Below are positions 4,454 to 61,374 of a stretch of 64,000 bases of DNA, piece after piece. The position numbers and the translations under genes were made by a program. This DNA comes from Candidatus Melainabacteria bacterium GWF2_37_15 (GTDB lineage: Bacteria; Cyanobacteriota; Vampirovibrionia; Gastranaerophilales; UBA9971). The stretch is taken from the NCBI GenBank assembly GCA_001784565.1, contig MFRL01000027.1, positions 660-64,659 on the forward strand, written 5' to 3'. The notes beneath the pieces are model-generated. The model saw only the letters and a program-made list of their open reading frames with translations, searched no databases and had not been told where the DNA came from. How positions within the stretch are numbered: position 1 is the first letter of the stretch; each line of letters opens with the position of its first letter.

Positions 4454-4903
4454 ATGAAATTAAACACCAGCAGATTCGGAGAAATTGAGGTTGATGACGG
4501 CCTCGTATTTAACTTTATTGAGCCGATTTTAGGTTACGATAACTTAAAAAAATATGTATTGATTGATAATTCGCCAGAATCACCTTTCAAGTGGCTTCAA
4601 TCTGTTGAAGATCCCAACATAGCTTTTCCAATAACATTTCCAGCTTATTTTGGCATTAATTACCAGTTTGTTATACCTGAAGAAAAAACAAAAAAACTTG
4701 AGGTTAAAGGATCTGAAAATGTACTTTCATTTAATATTGCTTGCATCCCTCAGGGGAAAGTGGAGGACTCTACTGTAAATCTTGTGGGGCCAATAGTAAT
4801 TAATGTTGAAAATAAAAATGCAATGCAGATCGTGCTAACAGATACAAAATTTAGCGTAAAACACAGACTTTTTGATAAGGATGTAGTAAAATGCTCGTCT
4901 TAA
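4454..4903 (+). CDS. fliW: Flagellar assembly factor FliW
   Basis: The N-terminus is FliW-like ([30 protein letters not shown]). The 3' end overlaps csrA, the conserved fliW-csrA pairing. Confidence 0.85.
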
Positions 4904-5196
4904 CCAGAAAAAAAGGACAAAAATTAATAATAAACGATAATATAGAAATCACTGTTCTGGAAACCAGGGGTGATTCAGTAAAAATCGGGATAAATGCTCC
5001 GCGTGAGGTTTCTGTTTTCCGTGAGGAAATCTATGAAGAAATTAAAAAAGCAAATGAGCAGGCACAAAGAGAAGTGATTATTGCAGATTTGGATCAAGTC
5101 CTCGCTATGCAAAATGTAAAAAAAGATGTTTCCAATGACTATATGAAAAAGATTCAATCTTTTACTAATAAGCTGAAAAGTAATGACAAAGAATGA
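4891..5196 (+). CDS. csrA: Carbon storage regulator CsrA (long C-terminal extension)
   Basis: [48 protein letters not shown] is a canonical CsrA fold sequence. The product is 101 aa, against about 60-75 aa typically. Confidence 0.9.
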
Positions 5197-14561: not shown

Positions 14562-15182
14562 TTAAGAAATTTTCTTTGCTTTTAAATACTTAATTTCTTC
14601 ATCAAAGCATAACTTAATTATCCTGTTCCTTTCTGTTTCGCTAATGTCTGTGAAAAGTATAACAGACGCAACATTCCTGCCCTGCAATAGGGTGTATAGA
14701 ACCCGTCCTATTCCTTTTATAACCATTCCATCAGGAAGAAACAGGGAAAATACCCACCTGTCTTCAGCTTTAAATTCCTCGTCCGCAAAGAATCTTATGC
14801 CGCCTCCACCTATGTTTATTGTCCTTGTTTCAAAGTTTACATCCCCTTTTTTTAAAGTTAATCTGAGGCTTATAGGAGCTCTTACATATTCTCTTCTTTG
14901 AATTTTCTTTTTTTCCACCGGTAGTTCAATCACAAAATCATGTTCCAAAGGAGAGTTTATAACTATTGAATCAAATGCAAAAATTCCTGAATCTGAGTAT
15001 ATTACAGCCTCGATTTCCCTGCCTTCAGGCAGGTCTCTTATAATATCCATCCTGTCCTGTGGGAAAACAAGGCCTATTCTGTCATTTTCTACCCATTTTA
15101 TAGTACAGGAAATGTTTTCCTCTTTAACAAAAGGCATAATAAATTTTATTTTCACTATGTTCCCGTTTTGCAGCTCTTTCAT
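14562..15182 (-). CDS. PilZ domain protein (YcgR-like, putative c-di-GMP receptor)
   Basis: PilZ motifs are present: RREYVR (RxxxR) and NIGGGGIRF (the D/NxSxxG variant). An N-terminal beta-rich domain is also present. Confidence 0.7.
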   Translation of the reverse strand: MKELQNGNIVKIKFIMPFVKEENISCTIKWVENDRIGLVFPQDRMDIIRDLPEGREIEAVIYSDSGIFAFDSIVINSPLEHDFVIELPVEKKKIQRREYVRAPISLRLTLKKGDVNFETRTINIGGGGIRFFADEEFKAEDRWVFSLFLPDGMVIKGIGRVLYTLLQGRNVASVILFTDISETERNRIIKLCFDEEIKYLKAKKIS

Positions 15183-19520: not shown

Positions 19521-19670
19521 CTGGTCGTCCTCATAATGGATAAAGATATTTTAACACAATCCATCATTGTCATTCTGAGGACATTTTTTCAAAAAATGGA
19601 CACTGCAAAAAAAATCATTATTAATAATTTCAGGAAATGGGAAAATTTTTACATAACTTTACAAAAAACC

Positions 19671-19697
19671 TAAAGTATTACTTGAATTTGCCGATAA
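19671..19697 (+). promoter_or_regulatory. Sigma-28 (FliA) promoter, TAAAGTAT-N11-GCCGATAA
   Basis: 15 of 16 positions match the enterobacterial consensus TAAAGTTT-N11-GCCGATAA. The -10 box ends 38 nt upstream of the ATG at 19735. Confidence 0.75.
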
Positions 19698-19734
19698 ACA
19701 AATTAAGTACGCTCATAAACATGGAGAAAAGATA

Positions 19735-46335: not shown

Positions 46336-47076
46336 ATGATTGAACAAGTAATAAAAATAGCAAACCAGGCCGCAGAAGCCATCATGGAAATATATAAAAG
46401 TGTTGATCCTGAGGTTAAGTACAAGAAGGACGATTCACCGGTCACGCAAGCTGACATATTATCAAATGAACTAATAATTAAAGAGTTAAAACAGATTTCT
46501 GATCTGCCTATCCTCACAGAAGAAACCCAGGTTCTTTATGAACAAAGGAAAACCTGGAATAAATTCTGGCTGGTTGATCCATTGGATGGAACAAAGGACT
46601 TCCTTGTCAAAAACGACCAATTTACGGTTAATATTGCGCTGGTAGAAAATAGGAAACCTATATTAGGAGCGGTTCTAATCCCGGCTGAAGGACTCTGCTA
46701 TTGGGCAGAAAAAGATAAAGGCGCTTTTAAAAATGGGGAAAAAATTTATAATAATTCCAAAAGAACTGACTTAATCGGAAGCGACAGTAATTTCCATTCG
46801 ACTGAAGAAACCCAGGCTTTCTATGCAAAGCATAACGTGCAGCATATTCAAAGATACGGTTCTGCCTTAAAGTTCTGCAAACTGGCAGAAGGAGAAATCG
46901 ACCTGTACGCTAGGCTAAACGGCACCATGGAATGGGATACAGCCGCTGGCCATATTATTATGAATGAAGCAGGATGTAAAATTATTGATGTAAAAACAAA
47001 AAGCGAGCTTATTTACAACAAGGAAACCCTGCTAAATAATCATTTCATCGCTTGCAGGAATGATTTAAGTTTTTAA
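46336..47076 (+). CDS. cysQ: 3'(2'),5'-bisphosphate nucleotidase
   Basis: ILTEE, WLVDPLDGTKDF and WDTAAG motifs. The ATG at 46336 is preferred over the TTG at 46330. Confidence 0.85.
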   Translation: MIEQVIKIANQAAEAIMEIYKSVDPEVKYKKDDSPVTQADILSNELIIKELKQISDLPILTEETQVLYEQRKTWNKFWLVDPLDGTKDFLVKNDQFTVNIALVENRKPILGAVLIPAEGLCYWAEKDKGAFKNGEKIYNNSKRTDLIGSDSNFHSTEETQAFYAKHNVQHIQRYGSALKFCKLAEGEIDLYARLNGTMEWDTAAGHIIMNEAGCKIIDVKTKSELIYNKETLLNNHFIACRNDLSF

Positions 47077-47678
47077 AAGCTTATAACTAAACCTTTTCCA
47101 TCTTCAATTTTGTGCATAAATTCGTCTGTTGTCACTATTCCATCGTTATCGGCATCAGCGGCTTTTATCGCTTCCAGCATAGCTTTTTCGCGTTTTTGTG
47201 CCAGAGAATCGGTTCCGCTTAGAGCATTTAGCTCCCCGTCGATACCGCGAACGTGAAATTTATTATTATCACCTTTCTCATACTGCATTTTATTAAAGAA
47301 TTCAAAGGCAAAATCTTCATCCACATATTCTGTGCCTTCTGATTCACTAAAAAATTTATCTTCGTTATTATTTACAAGTTCTTCACCTAATTGAGCTTTA
47401 TTCGTAAAAAATTCACCCCAGTGGTCTGTTGTGTGTGTATGGTGATGATGGTGCTCAACAGGTTCACTGTCTACAACAGGTTCACTTACAGTCACAGGTT
47501 CGCTAACCTCTGCAGGTTTCTGTGCTACTGTTGGTGCATTAAACGCTGCAAATAAATTCATAAATGCGTTCAAGAATGAATTTGTATTATTTGTATAATT
47601 ATTTGTATATACCGGCGTAAAAAATGAGGTTCTAGGTCTATACATACTTTGCACTGCTAGTAAACTATAAATACTCAT
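47073..47678 (-). CDS. Hypothetical N/Y-rich protein with SEPV repeats, His run and a canonical EF-hand loop
   Basis: DADNDGIVTTDE fits the 12-residue EF-hand loop. The N-terminal architecture parallels the ORF at 54237. Confidence 0.55.
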   Translation of the reverse strand: MSIYSLLAVQSMYRPRTSFFTPVYTNNYTNNTNSFLNAFMNLFAAFNAPTVAQKPAEVSEPVTVSEPVVDSEPVEHHHHHTHTTDHWGEFFTNKAQLGEELVNNNEDKFFSESEGTEYVDEDFAFEFFNKMQYEKGDNNKFHVRGIDGELNALSGTDSLAQKREKAMLEAIKAADADNDGIVTTDEFMHKIEDGKGLVISF

Positions 47679-47791
47679 TTTAAACCTCCAGTTGAGCCAC
47701 TGTTTTTTTGATTCTCCACTTATATAAAAAATATATATATCGTAGTATTTCAGTATATATTAAAACTGTTACAAAATTTTACATGCATGTT

Positions 47792-58370: not shown

Positions 58371-58506
58371 AAACGACCAGCCTCTCGTTTTTTTAAAGTT
58401 AAGACACTTTTGTTATTTTAGTGATTTTTTATGAGTTTGACAAGGTAGTAAAAGTTGAATTTTGAGTTACTTTGTAAACATTTTGTAACGTTTTTTGAAG
58501 TTTGCA

Positions 58507-58533
58507 TAAAGTTAAACCTAAAAATACCGATTT
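58507..58533 (+). promoter_or_regulatory. Sigma-28 (FliA) promoter, TAAAGTTA-N11-ACCGATTT
   Basis: The -35 matches TAAAGTTT at 7 of 8 positions, the -10 keeps the CCGAT core, and the spacer is exactly 11 nt. It lies about 125 nt upstream of the ATG at 58658. Confidence 0.6.
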
Positions 58534-58657
58534 ATATAGTAAGAAACCTCCTCACCTTACCTCAAACGTTTATCTTACCTTTTTTCTACTACATTAACTT
58601 ACCCCTATTCAGGGGAAATCCGAATGCAACTAATTAAAAAATAACAGGAGAAGATAT

Positions 58658-59029
58658 ATGAGCGAAATTCGTATCAACAAACTTAACAACTACCAGCCGC
58701 CAAAAACATCAGGTCAGCCTAAAAAAGAGGAAACAACCCAACAGGAAATAAAACAAGAGCCTACATTGAGCCAAAAAGCCCCGGATGAAGTATTAGGGTT
58801 CATGGCTAATCAGGCAATGCTCGGAAAAGCTGGCATAACCGGAAAAAAAGCCGTTGATGTAAATAAATACGTTGATACAGAGAGCAAAGAAAGAATTGAA
58901 AAAATAATGGTTGCTTTTGAAGCAAACATTCTTAAAACCGCAGAAACAGCGATAAAAGAGTTTGGGATATCAGAAAGAGCTGCATCTGATGCTGCTATAA
59001 TCGGATTTAACCGAAAATTCCTTGTTTAA
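58658..59029 (+). CDS. Hypothetical protein under a sigma-28 promoter (weak FlgM-like candidate)
   Basis: 123 aa with an AGGAG RBS, a polar disordered-looking N-terminal half and a helical C-terminal half. A terminator follows. Confidence 0.5.
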   Translation: MSEIRINKLNNYQPPKTSGQPKKEETTQQEIKQEPTLSQKAPDEVLGFMANQAMLGKAGITGKKAVDVNKYVDTESKERIEKIMVAFEANILKTAETAIKEFGISERAASDAAIIGFNRKFLV

Positions 59030-59050: not shown

Positions 59051-59075
59051 AAAAAGCCCCTCTAGGGGGCTTTTT
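59051..59075. terminator. Bidirectional terminator between convergent genes
   Basis: The sequence is A5-GCCCC-TCTAG-GGGGC-T5. It overlaps the stop of the minus-strand gene at 59074. Confidence 0.75.
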
Positions 59076-59595
59076 AATTGGGATTAATTACTCTACATTC
59101 TTCGTGAATTTTAGCTAAGGTATTATCATGGATATCTGAGAGGGGTTTAAACGAGTTATAACTCTTCGTAAAAACATCTCCGAGAGACTTTTCTATAATT
59201 TCTTTTCCATTTTTACTTACTTTTACCTCCCCTGTTTTACAGTTAGCGTTAACTATAACCCCGTTATCAAATTCCAGTTTTAAGTTATCCTCTTGCTTTG
59301 AAATTTTTGTATCTTTATTAATTTTAGCTCCCGTTTTATCAAGACTATGTCCTATTGCTATTATATCCCGTCGGGTTTGTTCAACTTCTATAGCACGATT
59401 TGCACCAAGACCAAATCCTGTAAGACATGCTATAAATACAGTGCCTGCTGTGAGCGCTTTAAGTGACATATTTTTATTTTTTGCTTCGGAATGTTGGGAT
59501 TTTTTCCCGCCAAAACAAACCCCACTCCGCTGCATTGAGACGGGCCTTCTTTGTACCGGCTTATTTTGTAGGTTTATAAAATTAATATTTAGCAT
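59074..59595 (-). CDS. Hypothetical single-pass membrane protein (VCFGG motif)
   Basis: 173 aa with a basic stretch, then the TM helix ALTAGTVFIACLTGFGLG. The architecture resembles the ORF at 30377. Confidence 0.45.
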   Translation of the reverse strand: MLNINFINLQNKPVQRRPVSMQRSGVCFGGKKSQHSEAKNKNMSLKALTAGTVFIACLTGFGLGANRAIEVEQTRRDIIAIGHSLDKTGAKINKDTKISKQEDNLKLEFDNGVIVNANCKTGEVKVSKNGKEIIEKSLGDVFTKSYNSFKPLSDIHDNTLAKIHEECRVINPN

Positions 59596-59660: not shown

Positions 59661-60299
59661 CTAAACGTGATCTTTTTCTATTAAATATTCCCGAATCTTA
59701 TTTAGCGCAGATTGAACAATCCTCGTAACCCTGGACGGAGAAAGCCCCATGTAAGTAGCAACGTCCTTTACCTGCAAATTTCTGTAAAACCTGTACTCAA
59801 CTATTGTTCTCTCTTTAGGAGGTAGAGAAGCAATTGCCTTTTTAATGCCTTTGCTAAGTTCAATTAATTCCAGCCGCTCCTCAGGCAGGGCAGCACTGTC
59901 TTTTAAGAAATCAAACGGGGTATCATTTTCAGAAGCATCAGACATGCTGTCTATAGAAAGGATGGTTTCATAAATGCCTTCACGCAGTTTTTCCGGGGAA
60001 ACGTCAAGACTACTACCTTCTTCGCCTTCTTCCTCAGGTTTTCCGCCCTGTTTATAGGAATACCATTTATAACGGTTTCTTAATTCATTCCTGATAGCCC
60101 ACCTTACTGCAGTACCTATGTATGATTTATTATACTTTTCCAGTTCTTCGCCGCTTTTTCCTTTAATAAGAGATTGCACGGCAATTATTCCAATACTTAC
60201 CAGCTCTTCATGATCAACCATGTGAGATGGAATGCGCCTCTGCTCTATGCGTGCGACCTTTTCAACTATTTCTAAGTAATCTTTTACTTTACTATGCAT
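59661..60299 (-). CDS. fliA: Sigma-70 family factor, FliA/sigma-28 type
   Basis: It has region 2 (YIGTAVRWAIRNELRN) and region 4 HTH (VKDVATYMGLSPSRVTRIVQSALNKIR). It overlaps the flhB stop by 8 nt, and sigma-28 consensus promoters are present in the window. Confidence 0.7.
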   Translation of the reverse strand: MHSKVKDYLEIVEKVARIEQRRIPSHMVDHEELVSIGIIAVQSLIKGKSGEELEKYNKSYIGTAVRWAIRNELRNRYKWYSYKQGGKPEEEGEEGSSLDVSPEKLREGIYETILSIDSMSDASENDTPFDFLKDSAALPEERLELIELSKGIKKAIASLPPKERTIVEYRFYRNLQVKDVATYMGLSPSRVTRIVQSALNKIREYLIEKDHV

Positions 60300-61374
60300 T
60301 ATTTGTATTTACTTTGGTATCTTTACGTAAATTATAAACAAATAATAGAATTTCGGCTACAGCTTTATATAATTCAGGTGGAATTTCTCTGTTTATTTCC
60401 ACAAATCTAAATATGGCCCGTGCAACCGGAGGGTTCTCTATCACTGGAATATTGTGCTCTTTAGCTATTTGAATAATTTTTTTTGCAAATAATTCTGTTC
60501 CTTTTGCGAGAAGTCTGGGAGCTTCCATTTTTTCTGAATCATATTTTAATGCAACTGCAATATGTGTAGGATTTGTTATAACAAAGTCAGAATCAGGAAC
60601 AGAATCCTGCATAGTTTTATGTAACATTTGCATACGTTTCTGTCTGAGGGCTGCTTTAACATGAGGATCGCCTTCCGAGTTTTTATATTCATCCCTTATT
60701 TCTTTAAAAGACATTTTCTGGTCCTTGAGAAATTTCCAGCGTGTAAAAGCATAGTCAGCTCCTGCAATGACAAGAAATATAATCCCGGCTTTTATAACGA
60801 AGTCAATTATCATTTGGCCGAATGCGTAAAGAATTGCAAAGGTATTTTCCATTGCGCATAAAGAAAGAAGGGCAGGAATGTGGGCTTTAAAAACAAAAAA
60901 GGCTACTAACCCAAGCACAATAACTTTAACTACGTTTTTAGCAAGTTCAAAGTATGTTTTCAAACTAAAAAAGATATTCTTAAATCCTGAAACAGGATTT
61001 AGTTTGTCAAACTTTGGCTCTATGGATTTAGTGGCAAAAAGAGGCCCTACCTGCATAAAATCCCCGGCTATGGCCACCAGGCATGATAAAAAAAGTATAG
61101 GAACAATAATCAGTATCGTTGGAAATACCGCAAGAAATAATACATATGTATATCCTATTTTATCCAAATTTGCATTAGGAATCTGTTCATAAAGAAGAAT
61201 AAAAAGCTTGGAAATCTGATTCCATAGAAGAGGAGCAAGAGCATTTAAGGCAAGAAACATAACCAGAAGTGATAAAGCAGTGGATAAATCCTTGCTTTTA
61301 ACTACCTGTCCTTCTTTCCTTACTTTTCGCAGTTTTTGAGCCGTTGCCTCAAATGGTTTATCTTCGTCAGCCAT
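60292..61374 (-). CDS. flhB: Flagellar biosynthesis protein FlhB
   Basis: N-terminal EKPFEATAQKLRKVRKEGQV, four TM helices, EGDPHVKA, and the autocleavage site NPTH. Confidence 0.9.
   Translation of the reverse strand: MADEDKPFEATAQKLRKVRKEGQVVKSKDLSTALSLLVMFLALNALAPLLWNQISKLFILLYEQIPNANLDKIGYTYVLFLAVFPTILIIVPILFLSCLVAIAGDFMQVGPLFATKSIEPKFDKLNPVSGFKNIFFSLKTYFELAKNVVKVIVLGLVAFFVFKAHIPALLSLCAMENTFAILYAFGQMIIDFVIKAGIIFLVIAGADYAFTRWKFLKDQKMSFKEIRDEYKNSEGDPHVKAALRQKRMQMLHKTMQDSVPDSDFVITNPTHIAVALKYDSEKMEAPRLLAKGTELFAKKIIQIAKEHNIPVIENPPVARAIFRFVEINREIPPELYKAVAEILLFVYNLRKDTKVNTNNA

Follow-up and report, generated by a model that had tools for sequence, protein, structure and literature searches.

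A lineage-restricted protein family of Melainabacteria encoded behind a conserved sigma-28-type promoter and an upstream HLR1-type box

Introduction

Class-3 flagellar promoters, which are recognised by sigma-28 (FliA/SigD), follow the consensus TAAA-N15-GCCGATAA and carry in E. coli an extended −35 element, TAAAGTT. Among the genes typically read from such a promoter is flgM, to which the arrangement lends an autoregulatory logic; its product, FlgM (PF04316), has about 100–130 amino acids (aa) and is intrinsically disordered towards the N-terminus and helical towards the C-terminus. Late flagellar expression can also be controlled on the mRNA, as in the hag leader of B. subtilis, where a CsrA dimer bridges two GGA motifs, one of them in the Shine–Dalgarno (SD) sequence, and blocks translation until FliW sequesters CsrA; the expected target of CsrA–FliW is the flagellin mRNA. 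In Campylobacter jejuni, the Feds/FspA proteins are small and lineage-specific, are encoded behind sigma-28 promoters scattered outside the flagellar operons, and have no assigned biochemical function. The HLR1 motif of Cyanobacteria, composed of two (G/T)TTACA(T/A)(T/A) octamers 2 nucleotides (nt) apart, is bound by the OmpR-family regulator RpaB (PMC6525291). Melainabacteria are flagellated and have kept homologues of RpaA, RpaB and NblS without photosynthesis, perhaps for another function (Di Rienzi et al. 2013, PMC3787301). Here we describe, in a 64-kb window (the whole stretch of DNA that was analysed, to whose positions all coordinates refer) from Candidatus Melainabacteria bacterium GWF2_37_15, a gene for a 123-aa protein at 58658–59029 (+ strand) that can be compared with each of these systems. 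The gene is real, it belongs to a protein family restricted to this lineage, and its sigma-28-type promoter and the HLR1-type box upstream of it are both conserved.

A sigma-28-type promoter conserved throughout the family

The open reading frame (ORF) begins with an ATG at 58658 and ends with its stop at 59029, and is 100% identical to NCBI entry A2Y25_11000, which is annotated as a hypothetical protein. Upstream of it and in the same orientation lies a sigma-28 (FliA)-type promoter, TAAAGTTA-N11-ACCGATTT (58507–58533, + strand), in which an 11-nt spacer separates TAAAGTTA (58507–58514) from ACCGATTT (58526–58533). Set against the sigma-28 consensus it reads TAAA-N15-aCCGATtt, so that both sequence and spacing agree with the described class-3 promoters, as does the extended −35 element. 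Within the window alone the pattern is weakly above chance, TAAA-N16-CCGAT being seen three times against 0.78 expected, with 5 of 100 shuffles also reaching three. Two of the three, at 19671 and 58507, lie between genes and point in the same direction as an ORF.

We compared 66 loci of the family, namely the window, L001–L009 and L010–L065. A sigma-28-type promoter stands directly upstream of the gene in every one of them (66/66), against a background of 0.016 per 300 nt. The family form of the promoter is (C)TAAAGTTy-N11-12-(G/A/T)(C/T)CGATAA, and it usually starts 60–75 nt before the ATG. Since the promoter is kept at loci whose proteins have only 25–35% identity to the window protein, it is under selection, and this conservation strongly supports, at the level of sequence, the view that the 123-aa family belongs to the core of the sigma-28 regulon. 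The promoter had originally been predicted from the window sequence; the occurrence of the same promoter type at all homologous loci, and a FliA-like sigma gene close by, bear that call out.

The nearby sigma gene (59661–60299, − strand) encodes a 212-aa protein with a Pfam Sigma70_r4 domain. Among NCBIfam models FliA_WhiG fits it best, at 78 bits and below the cut-off of 189.6, and its best match in the PDB is Aquifex aeolicus FliA (1RP3, residues 6–206, E = 8.9e-11), with WhiG next. Judged by these matches, the product is a divergent FliA of the FliA/WhiG family. It differs from the sigma factors of described class-3 promoters in being short, in falling below the FliA_WhiG cut-off and in being annotated as a hypothetical protein. 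The NCBI record gives it a shorter start and 186 aa; in the 212-aa reading its start overlaps the stop of flhB (60292–61374) by 8 nt, which suggests co-transcription with flhB.

The stop of the 123-aa ORF and the 3′ end of the sigma gene are 632 nt apart, a distance that the original prediction had put at about 0.6 kb. Shortly after the stop lies a strong bidirectional intrinsic terminator, AAAAAGCCCCUCUAGGGGGCUUUUU (59051–59075; −21.3 kcal/mol, z = −3.45), although a pattern scan for terminators did not list this hairpin. The gene is therefore a monocistronic unit, and the clean terminator together with the variable neighbours at other loci identifies it as a real, stand-alone gene. Between it and the sigma gene is a 173-aa ORF (59074–59595, − strand; 153 aa in NCBI), whose product probably has a signal peptide or membrane anchor. 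The syntenic locus L003 lacks this ORF, and there the homologue of the 123-aa ORF abuts the sigma gene and is directly convergent with it; in the window clade the family gene lies near fliA–flhB. A neighbour analysis across 64 loci found neither flagellar neighbours nor any universal neighbour.

An HLR1-type box coupled to sigma-28 promoters

Upstream of the focal promoter, ending 17 nt before its −35 element, is the direct repeat TGTAAACATTTTGTAAC (58473–58489, + strand). Its reverse complement reads GTTACA-N5-TTTACA, with a period of 11 and 10 core positions without mismatch. The pattern TGTAAM-N4-5-TGTAAM has three matches in the 64 kb against 0.14 expected, and none of 100 shuffles reaches three. 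In reverse complement this pattern is (G/T)TTACA-N4-5-(G/T)TTACA, and hence the HLR1 motif of RpaB; we therefore refer to the repeat as an HLR1-type box, that is, a box of the RpaB/OmpR-family type. Perfect boxes with a period of 10 are found at 19649–19663 (+ strand; TTTACATAACTTTACA), upstream of the other consensus sigma-28 promoter of the window, and at 47769–47783, within the pattern match at 47768–47783 and upstream of a 201-aa ORF (47073–47678, − strand). At the former position, box TTTACATAACTTTACA and the sigma-28 promoter TAAAGTAT-N11-GCCGATAA (19671–19697) make up a composite promoter (19649–19698, + strand) upstream of a 117-aa ORF (19735–20088).

The arrangement at the focal gene is shared by most of its family. 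Of the 62 non-redundant family loci, 50 have a box with at most one core mismatch at a fixed offset from TAAAG, where the background rate is 0.02 per 70 nt. The offset is −44/−43 in 42 loci and −34/−33 in 10, positions one helical turn apart, with a single orientation throughout, and in most of the others a TGTWAC half-site is retained at −34/−33. Of 71 loci with metagenome relatives of the 117-aa ORF, 40 show the sigma-28 motif; in 14 of these an HLR1-like box lies no more than 70 nt upstream of it, mostly at −33/−34. The combination of HLR1 and sigma-28 thus recurs in a second, unrelated gene family, and the composite is therefore a feature of a regulon and not a quirk of one gene.

The boxes resemble cyanobacterial HLR1 in their two TTACA-core octamers, their period of 10–11 bp and their fixed, helically phased positions, and the box at 19649 has its centre some 50 nt before the inferred start, in agreement with the activating position near −51 in Synechocystis (PMC6525291). 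Homologues of RpaB have been reported in Melainabacteria (PMC3787301); none was found among the 20 window ORFs that we scanned. The situation differs from that of Cyanobacteria in that the lineage is non-photosynthetic and the promoters behind the box are flagellar, of the sigma-28 type, with RpaB a putative ligand, and in that the focal gene has its box inverted, with a centre at about −60 to −70. The sequence patterns lead us to infer that a regulator of the RpaB type takes part in the control of late flagellar promoters. The coupling also sets the focal promoter apart from described class-3 promoters, and we know of no earlier description of an HLR1-type box joined to a sigma-28 promoter.

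We regard the conserved composite of HLR1 and sigma-28 as the most interesting outcome of the analysis. It points to a possible task for the orphan RpaB homologues of this lineage: RpaB and NblS homologues of non-photosynthetic Melainabacteria may gate the expression of late flagellar genes. If this is so, it would have implications for which processes the RpaB regulon governed in the cyanobacterial lineage before the advent of photosynthesis.

Protein family and predicted structure

An exhaustive HMMER search with the 123-aa protein returned 33 representative clusters, and a profile search yielded a family of about 112 protein clusters, all without a Pfam domain or a functional name. All labelled members come from Melainabacteria/Gastranaerophilales, ACD20 and RIFOXYA12 included, while the rest belong to unlabelled gut metagenome-assembled genomes. 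Across the GTDB species genomes, a scan located 56 loci in 56 species, nearly all of them labelled Gastranaerophilales. Pfam and NCBIfam scans of the 123-aa ORF and of 35 family members assigned no family. As judged from these searches and from its promoters, this is an unannotated, lineage-restricted protein family and a new member of the sigma-28 regulon.

Three blocks are conserved across the family, DVLxFMAxQA, KYVTPEQAQRIAGFVxxFE and EFG..LS..A. The extreme N-terminus, MTNNINxIGIN, is also conserved in most members, the window clade carrying KYVDTESKERIEKIM in its place. One member (P0012, 206 aa, on a 732-nt ENA contig) has the C-terminal KYVTPEQAxRIxGF...ELG module in tandem duplicate, and the C-terminal module is therefore a separable domain.

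AlphaFold2, run for the window protein on a 107-sequence alignment, gave a model with a mean predicted local distance difference test (pLDDT) score of 64. Residues 1–34 score below 50, and helices are predicted at 42–57, 74–102 and 106–121; a typical gut-clade member has a like architecture, with a disordered N-terminus and three helices. The disordered N-terminal half and helical C-terminal half that had been anticipated from the sequence are thus reproduced by the model.

Proposed function and its alternatives

We consider it probable that the 123-aa ORF belongs to the late class of the flagellar regulon as a monocistronic gene, encodes a Melainabacteria-only protein and works as follows. 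RNA polymerase carrying the FliA-like sigma-28 encoded 0.6 kb away would start transcription at TAAAGTTA-N11-ACCGATTT, and an OmpR/RpaB-type response regulator seated on the HLR1-type repeat, whose centre is about 60 nt upstream of the start, would probably assist or gate initiation. The transcript would end at the hairpin at 59051–59075. Its product, of about 125 aa, would join a disordered, polar N-terminal segment of about 40 residues to a three-helix C-terminal domain with the family signature, and would act late in flagellar assembly or control, most plausibly as a flagellar export substrate with a regulatory role. The family belongs universally to the sigma-28 regulon of flagellated Melainabacteria, which makes it a concrete candidate for a late flagellar regulator, or an export substrate, specific to this lineage. 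The leading specific candidate for its role is that of an anti-sigma-28 not homologous to FlgM but analogous to it.

Several points weigh against this proposal. First, the function of the protein is deduced from its regulon and its predicted shape only. Second, the two AlphaFold2 models are of modest confidence (pLDDT 62–64), and Foldseek found no relative in the PDB at E ≤ 0.001. Third, the likeness of the family N-terminus to Bacillus FlgM (INxxxSVNPY) is not significant, and the segment is missing from the window protein. Lastly, outside the window clade and L003 the family gene lies away from flagellar genes, among variable neighbours. A literature search on the sigma-28 regulon, FlgM and CsrA of Melainabacteria returned nothing.

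The protein could instead be an accessory that is co-expressed with the flagellum and has no regulatory role, be it a lineage-specific export chaperone, a structural accessory or a flagellar-secreted protein; we regard this as possible, if somewhat unlikely. Such a role would suit an orphan, small, lineage-restricted and sigma-28-dependent gene away from the core flagellar operons, as well as a disordered N-terminus with a conserved tip. The Feds/FspA proteins of C. jejuni offer a parallel, being likewise small, lineage-restricted, under sigma-28 promoters and scattered in position, although there is no sequence relationship between them and the present family, whose secretion is putative. Nothing specific speaks against an accessory role, which is equally putative; the chaperone variant sits poorly with the established export chaperones FliS, FliT and FlgN, none of which is known to have a disordered N-terminus of 40 residues.

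Unlikely, in our estimate, is that the protein is the anti-sigma-28 of Melainabacteria, either as an extremely diverged FlgM or as a non-homologous analogue, which would bind FliA and leave the cell through the completed hook–basal body. The gene would have the autoregulatory logic typical of flgM through its sigma-28-dependent promoter, it is present as a single copy at each locus examined, and, like flgM, it adjoins fliA in two lineages; at more than 60 loci, however, there is no such adjacency. The product falls within the size range of FlgM and is predicted to share its division into a disordered N-terminal and a helical C-terminal half, but disorder with C-terminal helices is a generic property. 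About 40 C-terminal residues extend beyond the length of FlgM, and the family has a signature of its own (KYVTPEQAQRIAGFVxxFE / EFG.LS).

The original prediction had seen in the product a FlgM-like protein and named a profile search against PF04316 as one check. We ran this search, and it gave no match at E ≤ 1 for the window protein or for any of the 35 family members, while seven FlgM sequences used as a control all passed the Pfam cut-off. A search of all PDB sequences with the family profile did not recover the FlgM chains of 1RP3 and 1SC5. In hhalign the family reached a probability of 0.27% against a seven-species FlgM profile and 0.58% against a Bacillus FlgM profile. A weak collinear resemblance appears when a global alignment is forced, which places IN...SVNPY at the N-terminus and sets tYDVS...RIAGFVxxF opposite GsYkVD...IAknmInF; the score of 9.3 nevertheless lies within the range of block-shuffled decoys (4.9 ± 2.7), 10 of 120 of which reach it. 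A hidden Markov model of FlgM, with which we scanned every ORF of a 0.5-Mb set of Melainabacteria sequence, found no canonical FlgM, and its top sub-threshold matches were the N-termini of the family itself.

Membership of the FlgM family is not supported by the combined outcome of the Pfam, PDB profile, hhalign, decoy and Foldseek comparisons, none of which gave a match. What survives of the FlgM-like assignment are the generic features, that is, the sigma-28 promoter, the size, the disordered N-terminus and the helical C-terminus, and the name FlgM might, rather tentatively, stand at best for a functional analogy. A still wider reading would make the family the missing non-homologous analogue of FlgM, the late promoters composites of sigma-28 and RpaB-type HLR1 elements, and orphan NblS–RpaB the system that controls motility; taken as a whole, we find this quite improbable.

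The leader, CsrA and a DNA-binding alternative

From the −10 element to the ATG the leader measures 124 nt (58534–58657, + strand) and contains a pyrimidine-rich block, a hairpin and the SD. The hairpin CCCCU/AUUC/AGGGG (58602–58615) holds an upstream GGA (58613–58615), part of the motif AGGGGA (58611–58616), and the SD AGGAG (58646–58650), with its own GGA at 58647–58649, lies 7 nt before the ATG. A leader of about 125 nt with these two motifs had been predicted, and all of it is in place. The fliW–csrA pair that had been noted in the window is likewise confirmed by Pfam, with fliW at 4454–4903 (+ strand; FliW, 1.1e-36) and csrA, of 101 aa, at 4891–5196 (+ strand; CsrA, 6.3e-26).

On these grounds the mRNA had been put forward as a target of CsrA on the model of hag in B. 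subtilis, in which a CsrA dimer would bridge the GGA at 58613–58615 and that of the SD and hold translation off until FliW sequesters it. The presence of fliW–csrA is shared with B. subtilis, and so are a GGA in the SD and a second one upstream, at a compatible spacing of 33 nt; the upstream GGA is kept in the four window-clade sequences, and the other clade with long leaders, L008/L065, has two extra GGAs. We nonetheless consider a CsrA target of this kind very unlikely. Unlike the hag leader, the window leader has its upstream GGA in the 3′ arm of the hairpin stem and not in the loop, a GGA inside an SD is trivial, and the gene is not a flagellin gene, whose mRNA would be the expected target.

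Nor is the two-site arrangement found across the family. Leaders have a median length of 38 nt and reach 124–132 nt only in the window clade and in L008/L065, and 33 of the 66 have no GGA besides that of the SD. In the gut clade a second GGA is common, but it sits inside a conserved TGTG(G/T)AA element (ATGTGGAAACA) near the inferred start site; in sister clades this element reads TGTGTAAC, TGTGAAT, TGTGAGC or TGTGGCA, with GTA, GAA, GAG or GGC in place of GGA. By this comparison the conserved part of the start-site element is TGTG and not GGA. Of the proposed CsrA target, then, the two GGA sites and the location of one of them in the SD stand, whereas presentation in a hairpin loop and conservation of the paired sites do not, and CsrA control of the 123-aa gene is unsupported by conservation and weakly founded, though it may operate in the clades with long leaders.

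RNA structure gave no signal in the leader either. The 124 nt fold no better than shuffles (z = −0.5), RNAalifold on four sequences found no compensatory pairs, sequestration of the SD is no greater than in shuffled leaders, and no Rfam family matched. The pyrimidine-rich block TTTATCTTACCTTTTTTCTACTACAT (58569–58594, + strand) hardly varies when the window clade is compared with L003, although their proteins are only 53% identical, and neither structure nor known RNA family accounts for its conservation. Promoter plus leader are 72% identical between the window and L003, against 65% for the coding sequence.

Loci L010–L064 carry a conserved ATGTGGAAACA, TGTGTAACAAACA or TGTGAAT 8–15 nt downstream of the −10 element, with an HLR1-like half-site, TGTAAC, in some clades. 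This start-site element could be the site of a second, repressing regulator or a conserved mRNA 5′ end. As to the CsrA protein of the window, the Pfam domain covers residues 1–52 of its 101 aa and leaves a long C-terminal extension, as is expected of FliW-regulated CsrA proteins. Neither a flagellin gene nor flgK/L adjoins fliW–csrA, and thiG lies a short distance upstream of fliW.

Least credible of all is that the protein is a late-stage transcriptional regulator that binds DNA through its C-terminal helices, folded as a small module of the helix-turn-helix or ribbon-helix-helix-like type: the family profile weakly matches CopG helix A-turn-helix B (E = 0.055, the sole PDB-profile match), HTH_40 is weakly matched in 4 of the 35 members (best E = 0.0027) and the EFG-LS..A segment resembles a helix-Gly-turn-helix, but the CopG and HTH_40 matches are all below significance, no beta-strand is predicted in the models, the putative recognition helix is not basic and Foldseek gave no relative.

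Other features of the window

The 117-aa ORF behind the other consensus sigma-28 promoter (19735–20088, + strand; beginning MGLAASQARFLQLTARKSDLE) has no Pfam match and is annotated as hypothetical by NCBI. It has more than 372 metagenome relatives, many of them with sigma-28 promoters. A 112-aa ORF at 21696–22034 has a similar beginning, MGLFSGIIGLVHLQQRQLDLE, and is perhaps its paralogue; the two are separated by a 282-aa ORF (20146–20994) that is rich in Gly, Ser, Ala and Pro and belongs to no family.

The 201-aa ORF (47073–47678, − strand) encodes a His run, EHHHHHTH, and has a weak EF-hand match. Its upstream region (47679–47790) contains, besides the perfect HLR1 box, a degenerate sigma-28-like motif, TTAA-N15-TACGATAT, and the ORF is possibly a third member of the HLR1/sigma-28 regulon. 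Elsewhere in the window, 14562–15182 (− strand) encodes a PilZ/YcgR-like protein (PilZNR plus PilZ), a candidate cyclic di-GMP flagellar brake and one more of the motility-related genes scattered over this stretch.

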